Shown here in pieces: positions 34,328 through 54,842 of a stretch of 64,000 bases of DNA; within the stretch, counting starts at the first letter, position 1; every line of letters starts with the position of its first letter. The DNA lies in sequence record OR327750.1. One strand, given 5' to 3'. The position numbers and the translations under genes are program-made. Under the pieces are notes generated by a model that made no database searches, was not told the DNA's origin, and worked only from the letters and a program-made list of their open reading frames with translations. This DNA is from Escherichia phage KK4.

Positions 34328-34544
34328 ATTGTTTTTCCGTTAAAACAGTAATATCATAGTAACAATCAGAAGAAGTTTTAACTGTAGAAATTTTATTATC
34401 AAAATACTCACGAGTCATTTTATGAGTATAATATTTTTTGCCATAAATGATAATAGGCTGATTTGGTCCTGGAACTTCTAGCTCACTTGGATTAGGAAGT
34501 GTAAAAAGAACTACACCAGAAGTATCTTTAAATCGTAAAATCAT
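34281..34544 (-). CDS. Hypothetical protein (nrdA.2 position)
   Basis: 87-aa ORF, ATGA overlap with td. Confidence 0.5.
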
Positions 34545-35401
34545 ATTGCCATTTTCCCTTTAATTGCTGGATGCGATTCATAATTTTCAAGGATAAAATC
34601 TTTCGGTTTCATGTATTCAGTTAACCAGTAAAGCTGTGTTTCGGTGTCACAATTTCCAAACTCTATAGGCCAATCAATTTTAAGTTCACATAGTTCTTTA
34701 GGCTCACGACGTAAAATTTCTTTACATTGCTCAGTATGATTCATATAGATGTGAGTATTACCACCAGAAAATATCAAATCTCCTGGGATAAGATTACACA
34801 TCTTAGCCACAATATGCGTCAAGGCAGCGTACGAGGCAATGTTGAATGGCAATCCCAAGAAAACATCTACACTTCTTTGGTACCATTGTAAATCAAGATA
34901 ACCATTACGCACATTAAACTGATAGAACATATGACAGGGCGGTAATGCCATTTGATTGATTTCAGCTGGATTCCATGCTGAAACGATTTGACGTCGATCA
35001 GTTGGTAATTTTTTAATACGATCAATAGTTTCAACTAATTGATCCACACCGCCGAAATCACGCCATTGTTTACCGTATATAGGACCAAGTTCACCACTAT
35101 GATATCCTAGGTCTTTAGCCTGGTTTTCATAGTTATCGTCCCAAATAGTTTTACCTTGAATAAGACTACCATGTGTGCGAAGACGTAAATCATTAACATT
35201 GGTAGAACCGGAAATAAACCATAGAAGCTCAGCAATGCATGCATTCCACGCAAGCTTCTTAGTTGTTACCGCAGGAAAACCTTTAGTTAAATCCCAACGT
35301 AATTTAGTACCGAACAAAGCAATTGTTCCTGTGCCTGTTCGGTCATCGGTTTCATAGCCATTTTCAAAAATGTCTTTAATTAAATCTTGGTATTGTTTCA
35401 T
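34541..35401 (-). CDS. td: Thymidylate synthase, uninterrupted (no intron)
   Basis: Contiguous 286-aa ORF closely matching recalled T4 Td across the T4 exon junction region. Confidence 0.95.
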
Positions 35402-35446
35402 TTAGTACCTTATATAAATTATAATACATTTTATGAAGCTAAATAA

Positions 35447-35794
35447 TCAATACGGTTTAGCATCAAATTTTCTCTCAATTTCAGGCGTGAAATATAATTC
35501 TTTACCGCGTTTGGAAAAGCGACCAATAATATGATAATTATTCTCATCAAATGTGATATTACCAATATCCATAGCTTTCAACCAAATATCGATATTTCTA
35601 TCCAGCTTTATGTCAAAATTCCAATACGGAGAACTATTACCGAAAATACTGCAAGCGGATTCAGTGAAACAACTGCTATAAATCTTGTCTTTAGGAACTA
35701 CTAATTGATAGACACCTTTAATAAACTGAGGACCCTGCCACTTTGGCTGTTTCGTGTCTTTTTCTAATAGAATAGGGTAATAATTAAAATTCAT
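35447..35794 (-). CDS. Hypothetical protein located between frd and td
   Basis: 115-aa ORF with its own short spacers (19 nt after frd, 45 nt before td); no recognisable motif. Confidence 0.55.
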   Translation of the reverse strand: MNFNYYPILLEKDTKQPKWQGPQFIKGVYQLVVPKDKIYSSCFTESACSIFGNSSPYWNFDIKLDRNIDIWLKAMDIGNITFDENNYHIIGRFSKRGKELYFTPEIERKFDAKPY

Positions 35795-35813
35795 ATTTCC
35801 GCCACGCGTTATT

Positions 35814-36640
<827 letters not shown>

Positions 36641-54614: not shown

Positions 54615-54842
54615 TTACTTAATGTTCAGATTACGAACTTCGATTTCGTCTTCATGGGCAAAATCAAACTGTTTGAATTCTGTGCCACCTTTAAATTTAA
54701 AAATCATTGTGAAGAAAGTCAGAACACCAGGTTTTTCTTCACGAACTCCACAGATATCATATTCAATACCATCTACAACCAGTTTGTTAGCAGTCAGAGC
54801 ATTTTTAGCTTTAACGATTTCGTTTTCGATTTTAAATTTCAT
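54615..54842 (-). CDS. Hypothetical protein
   Basis: 75-aa ORF preceded by the early promoter at 54884-54920. Confidence 0.55.
   Translation of the reverse strand: MKFKIENEIVKAKNALTANKLVVDGIEYDICGVREEKPGVLTFFTMIFKFKGGTEFKQFDFAHEDEIEVRNLNIK

Follow-up and report, generated by a model that had tools for sequence, protein, structure and literature searches.

td.1, a small gene between frd and td of T-even phages that was probably lost from phage T4

We analyzed a window of 64,000 nt from Escherichia phage KK4 (sequence record OR327750.1), in which ORF calling revealed three genes transcribed from the minus strand in the order frd, a 115-amino-acid (aa) ORF, here referred to as td.1, and td (Table 1). 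The initial annotation of this region had described the ORF as separated from its neighbours by spacers of 19 nt and 45 nt, which the ORF call and the sequence showed to be exact to the base. Its statement that frd and td overlap directly in T4 was also borne out, since the overlap of 4 nt (ATGA) was found both in RB59, a phage of species T4, and in the T4 records themselves. In the window, the stop codon of frd and the start codon of td are 412 nt apart, and the T4-type ATGA-sharing arrangement is thus absent.

Table 1. Features of the frd-td region; coordinates are those of the window unless another locus is named
Feature	Coordinates	Strand	Basis and remarks
frd, dihydrofolate reductase, 193 aa, upstream neighbour	35814..36395	-	ORF call; annotation of identical or near-identical records
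Flanking direct repeat, left copy, TAAATGAAATAA	35809..35820	-	Repeat search and alignment with the T4 junction; contains the frd stop codon TGA
frd/td.1 spacer, 19 nt	35795..35813	-	Read from the sequence
td.1 coding sequence, 115 aa	35447..35794	-	ORF call; ATG start, stop codon included; member of PHROG 1928
td.1/td spacer, 45 nt	35402..35446	-	Sequence and consensus scan
Flanking direct repeat, right copy, TAAATGAAACAA	35393..35404	-	Repeat search; contains the td start codon ATG
td, thymidylate synthase, 286 aa, uninterrupted, downstream neighbour	34541..35401	-	ORF call; annotated records
68-aa ORF	1652-1858 of locus L004 (Shigella phage SHFML-26)	-	Same junction as window 35402-35813

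A Shine-Dalgarno-like GGCGGA of moderate strength is located at 35803-35798, a few bases 5' of the td.1 ATG, and the pre-start sequence GGCGGAAA(A)T-ATG is likewise present in phage JQD51. The 45-nt spacer on the other side of td.1 harbors the ribosome-binding site of td (AAGG) as well as sigma-70-like promoter hexamers, TTGATT-18-TATTAT, which agreed at 9/12 positions in the consensus scan. We further observed, on the minus strand of window 35402-35450, a GCTTCA about 10-12 nt upstream of TATAAT/TAATTT, a combination which we take to resemble a T4 MotA-dependent middle promoter. Alignment with the window showed that JQD51 lacks 32 nt of this spacer. The spacer may carry a putative td-specific promoter that arrived with or after td.1. 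JQD51 shows two additional peculiarities. The frame of frd is shifted by two additional A residues ahead of its stop, so that frd is 12 codons longer and overlaps the td.1 start (locus L005, 1997-2614, minus strand), and the product names in the record are displaced by one gene, with td.1 being labelled dihydrofolate reductase and td being labelled hypothetical protein.

The 115-aa ORF is almost certainly the td.1 gene of phages T2H and T6, and a real gene. Its product is 99% identical to those of the ORFs named td.1 in T2H (AY262132.2) and T6 (AY262134.2), two entries of which a 2009 paper on mobE made use (PMC2790892), and RB32ORF229c is td.1, too. The protein, its position between frd and td and the spacers are the same in T2H, T6 and the window, with essentially no difference between them; td.1 stands beside an intronless td in T2, as it does in the window, and the neighbouring td of T6 carries an intron. 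The protein also matched phrog_1928 over its full length (E = 1e-35; residues 4-111 against profile positions 2-125 of 126). The entire frd-td segment is 100% identical to those of Escherichia phage GADU22 and Shigella phage JK23, from which we conclude that the window belongs to Tequatrovirus, and it is 97-99% identical to those of dozens of further Tequatrovirus genomes.

A translated search with the 115-aa protein matched 580 phage records, 362 of them at ≥90% identity, and the carriers of td.1 include T2, T2H, T6, RB32, RB33, RB3, RB6, RB18, RB51 and RB68. Within Tequatrovirus, the Td.1 proteins share 97-100% identity. The ORF is thus not a novelty of KK4 but the majority allele of its genus, already bearing a name in T2H and T6; present in hundreds of public genomes and named in T2 and T6 about twenty years ago, td.1 carries little weight as a discovery. 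Its labels in public records vary among "hypothetical protein," "putative homing endonuclease," "putative glucose-1-phosphate adenylyltransferase" and "putative dihydrofolate reductase," and our sequence analysis yielded no support for the functional ones. A literature search on td.1, the frd-td interval, the locus tags and the PHROG/VOG numbers returned nothing on the function of td.1.

Several observations indicate that td.1 is not a chance frame. When the window was compared with JQD51, whose DNA is 85% identical here, td.1 showed 31 synonymous and only 11 nonsynonymous differences (dN/dS of 0.05). The PHROG 1928 match and a confident AlphaFold2 model built from the family alignment (mean pLDDT of 92, pTM of 0.84) point in the same direction, as does the retention of the frame across genera at 26-47% protein identity. 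What might speak for an untranslated chance frame is the moderate strength of the Shine-Dalgarno-like sequence; given the substitution pattern, which effectively refutes this reading, we assign it next to no probability.

When 1.84 billion representative proteins were searched exhaustively by HMM, only 22 matched, of which 20 were genuine, about 95-120 aa long and aligned end to end. The other two (P0021, 321 aa, and P0023, 380 aa) were rejected as spurious repeat matches, one of them being a reverse-transcriptase fragment. In the 23-sequence family alignment, Q16, W19, G27, G91, K95 and G97 are invariant, and the C terminus carries the conserved signature IIGRFxKxGxxxxFxP. Td.1 itself conforms to the general description of the family, whose members consist of a single domain, measure about 95-145 aa and have their genes between frd and td in a T4-like phage. 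As far as can be judged from these searches, the PHROG 1928 family appears to be confined to T4-like phages and, wherever examined, to the frd-td slot. A profile search of 515 segments of the window found no significant second family member. The 75-aa ORF at 54615-54842 on the minus strand, between motA and gene 52, matched the C-terminal half of the Td.1 profile with E = 0.03, probably by chance.

The label of homing endonuclease deserves separate consideration, as it is attached to td.1 in the BASEL-collection records of phages FriedrichMiescher, AndreasVesalius and FriedrichZschokke. Like the free-standing seg and mob genes, td.1 is small, sits between conserved genes and is present in some close relatives but not in others, and the homing endonuclease I-TevI acts ∼0.55 kb away in related phages. 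However, no GIY-YIG, HNH, LAGLIDADG or other Pfam or NCBIfam domain was detected in any of the 23 family members. Td.1 and its 22 relatives gave no match to a nuclease catalytic domain, with the His-Cys box, PD-(D/E)xK and EDxHD types also considered, in Pfam or NCBIfam even at permissive thresholds (for Td.1, no Pfam match at E ≤ 10), and no nuclease appeared among the structural neighbours, in agreement with the absence of endonuclease motifs reported initially. Moreover, 115 aa is too small for a nuclease plus a DNA-binding domain. In contrast to seg and mob genes, td.1 also occupies a fixed location across genera, is under strong purifying selection and occurs as tandem paralogues, whereas a sporadic and decaying distribution is typical of such elements. 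We thus consider it very unlikely that td.1 encodes a homing endonuclease, whether intact or as a remnant.

The junction into which td.1 falls had been called well conserved, a description that did not hold within Tequatrovirus, where the frd-td slot is variable and exists as three alleles: td.1, an empty slot and an unrelated 68-aa ORF. The td.1 allele is in the majority with ∼360 records, and the 68-aa allele was found in ∼135 records at ≥90% identity. The T4-type empty allele, which is present in T4, RB55, RB59 and vB_EcoM_112, accounts for a few tens of records, a figure obtained by subtraction. Mosigvirus, for which p000v was checked, has a compact ATGA junction identical to that of T4. 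The 68-aa ORF belongs to PHROG 9550 and overlaps both the frd stop and the td start. Since it has homologues in Klebsiella T4-like phages (∼79% identity) and in the unrelated Phapecoctavirus, i.e., the phAPEC8 group (∼43% identity), it looks like the slot's truly mobile passenger.

Outside Tequatrovirus, homologues of td.1 with 26-47% identity to Td.1 were found between frd and td in Kanagawavirus PEi26, Jiaodavirus Mineola, Roskildevirus Cronus and Marfavirus Potts1, that is, in 4/4 annotated genomes. In all 14 IMG/VR loci that were found with the family pattern, among them those of Citrobacter phage Moon, Salmonella phage STML-198, Serratia phage CHI14 and Escherichia phage EcS1, frd lies immediately upstream and td downstream. 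Outside Tequatrovirus, the genes in the slot often overlap each other and frd or td, and such compactness is typical of genes that have long resided at one place. Two tandem PHROG 1928 paralogues are present between frd and td in Kanagawavirus, Roskildevirus, Marfavirus, CHI14 and EcS1 (hhalign probability of 90-98%). The second paralogue of PEi26, Cronus and Potts1 contains an insertion of ∼19 residues after the conserved KW motif.

The initial annotation had stated that the ORF is missing from the T4 junction, and indeed nothing resembling it is located there. Nor does T4 encode a member of the td.1 family elsewhere, as the best hit among 1,438 six-frame segments of the whole T4 genome had an E value of 0.18, compared to 3e-40 for the window used as a control. 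The description of td.1 as an accessory gene stands accordingly, since T4, as well as Mosigvirus, does without it and the gene is thus dispensable. The junctions of T4 and Mosigvirus have the same flanking genes as the window and nearly identical flanks up to TAAATGAAA. In the junction alignment, T4 has flanks of the Tequatrovirus type, which barely differ from those of the window as far as the repeat. The repeat search identified a direct repeat around td.1, with 11/12 nt matching and a spacing of 416. T4 and RB59 hold exactly one repeat copy, GTATATAAATGAAACAATACC; T4 has a single copy of TAAATGAAA and no ORF, whereas in the window two copies lie 416 bp apart and enclose td.1. The T4 junction thus corresponds to a 416-bp deletion between the two TAAATGAAA copies that flank td.1 in the window.

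Short direct repeats are the endpoints of a classic type of deletion in T4. Because homologues hold the same frd-td slot in other genera, the compact T4 junction is best read as such a deletion, and we conclude that td.1 was probably ancestral to the slot and lost in T4. Deletion between the TAAATGAAA copies would have removed 416 bp and left the frd stop and the start of td sharing ATGA. td.1 would then be an old resident of the slot, with separate losses in T4 and Mosigvirus. A congruence test compared the pairwise identities of Td.1, Frd and Td over six phages, among which Frd and Td themselves were uncorrelated, and it favoured neither loss nor insertion.

The direction assumed initially was the opposite one, with the compact T4 junction being ancestral and td.1 being an inserted accessory cassette. 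This would fit with td.1 having spacers of its own, with the identity of the compact junctions in T4 and Mosigvirus and with the proven ability of the slot to accept foreign DNA, as exemplified by the 68-aa ORF in ∼135 Tequatrovirus records and its occurrence in Phapecoctavirus. The left repeat copy also resembles a duplicated td start (ATGAAATAA versus ATGAAACAA, within the repeat of 11/12 nt). However, TAAATGAAA is a common stop/start word of gene junctions, observed 12 times in this genome compared to 3.6 expected, so that the flanking repeat needs no special origin and is explicable without a duplication event. td.1 does not differ from its surroundings in base composition, with no compositional anomaly that would hint at a foreign origin, and no mobility gene lies beside it. 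The family occupies the same slot in at least 8 further genera, including the IMG/VR loci and annotated genomes listed above, where its members have diverged to 26-47% identity and often tightly overlap frd or td, and it was found nowhere outside this slot. Given the homologues in the same slot of Kanagawavirus, Jiaodavirus, Roskildevirus, Marfavirus and others, the term "inserted" most likely has the direction wrong, and we regard an insertion as rather improbable.

Intron homing provides a possible means of exchanging the alleles of the slot. The td gene of the window contains neither a group I intron nor I-TevI, and in intron-bearing relatives td is split after codon 183. The frd-td junction lies ∼0.55 kb from the intron site, and co-conversion following I-TevI cutting has been reported to reach up to 2 kb (PMC2790892). 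Since the junction falls well within this range, intron homing can in principle shuffle the alleles of the slot. A strict linkage between td.1 loss and the td intron or I-TevI was rejected, because every pairing of junction allele and intron state occurs. td.1 is accompanied by the intron in T6, Pu-Krd-SF4, EC128 and SHFML-11 and by an uninterrupted td in T2 and the window, T4 lacks td.1 and has the intron, and the 68-aa allele is found in both intron states.

The td gene of the window showed several further features. The position corresponding to the intron insertion point of its relatives, between td codons 183 and 184, is 34852/34853. An IMG/VR locus (L014) carries td.1 together with td exons that are 99.5-100% identical to td of the window and a 1016-nt insert at codon 183/184, so that the two form a near-isogenic intron-minus/intron-plus pair. 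Compared to T2H, the body of the window td is strongly mosaic, with a DNA identity of 54-88% from ∼110 nt past the start codon to the stop (especially 34544-35290), in contrast to an identity of 93-100% for td.1, the initial 100 nt of td, nrdA.2 and nrdA.1. This pattern suggests an allelic replacement in td with sharp borders. The td gene of T4 is a third allele, with ∼87% identity.

We next consider what Td.1 might do. The protein has a mass of 13.7 kDa and is mildly basic, and its sequence and AlphaFold2 model describe a single domain composed mostly of beta strands and one helix, with no catalytic motif. Searches of Pfam, NCBIfam, PADLOC and PDB yielded no sequence match for Td.1 or its relatives. 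In the model, strands are followed by a helix at 68-76 and a long hairpin, and the weak tails of two structure searches of the PDB consisted mostly of OB folds (HIN, Teb1, Cdc13, S1, SSB, RPA and RuvA domain I). Like the OB-fold domains of SSB/RPA, S1, cold-shock, HIN and telomere-end-binding proteins, Td.1 is predicted to be a small, barrel-type beta domain with the helix placed between the third and fourth main strands. The likeness extends to the aromatic and basic character of the conserved residues, including W19, Y29, F93 and K95, which lie in the first loop and in the last hairpin, and to the mildly basic pI (mostly 7.7-9.4 within the family), with all structural matches being weak. The order of strands and helix, together with the weak structural neighbours, suggests that Td.1 is an OB-like barrel.

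Based on this model, we tentatively propose that Td.1 could be a nonenzymatic, OB-like binding protein, a reading that we hold to be possible but short of probable. Td.1 would be produced from the same early/middle transcripts as Frd and Td, would bind nucleic acid or a protein partner early or midway through infection and would be dispensable for the basic lytic cycle. A more specific version is that Td.1 and its paralogues form a structurally new, OB-like family of T4-like phages which would have remained in the slot throughout the history of the subfamily because it works with Frd and Td, for example, as a subunit or regulator of the thymidylate/folate part of the dNTP complex or as a binder of frd/td mRNA. 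We regard this version as speculative and improbable.

A serious alternative, albeit one that we consider unlikely, is that Td.1 is an anti-defence or host-takeover factor whose place beside frd and td is incidental. Its presence or absence among close relatives, its replacement by an unrelated small ORF in another allele, the tandem paralogues in several genera and the ability of T4 to manage without it would all suit such a role, as would the small size of Td.1 and its lack of an enzymatic motif. Divergence between genera is also fast, with Td.1 retaining 26-47% identity, compared to 70-82% for Td. On the other hand, the very strong conservation of Td.1 within Tequatrovirus, seen in both protein identity and dN/dS, is unlike that of a typical arms-race gene, and td.1 was never found outside the frd-td slot. 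No PADLOC match was obtained, though the PADLOC library comprises defence rather than anti-defence proteins, and our literature search found no link of td.1 to any defence system. Conservation and fixed location thus speak somewhat against an anti-defence role.

Taken together, we favour, with some reservation, the combined explanation that td.1 is a genuine T-even gene and a resident of the frd-td slot that was lost in T4 and Mosigvirus and whose product would act by binding. Td.1 is strongly conserved, confidently folded, apparently restricted to T4-like phages and has no relative among solved structures, and it sits in a slot that T4 has probably emptied. Should Td.1 indeed be a partner of Frd and Td, T4 and Mosigvirus would have found a way to dispense with it. 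At frd-td, T4 is the odd one out, and its textbook gene overlap probably arose secondarily, by deletion between 9-bp repeats. Taking the T4 layout as ancestral will therefore lead to accessory genes being misread as insertions.
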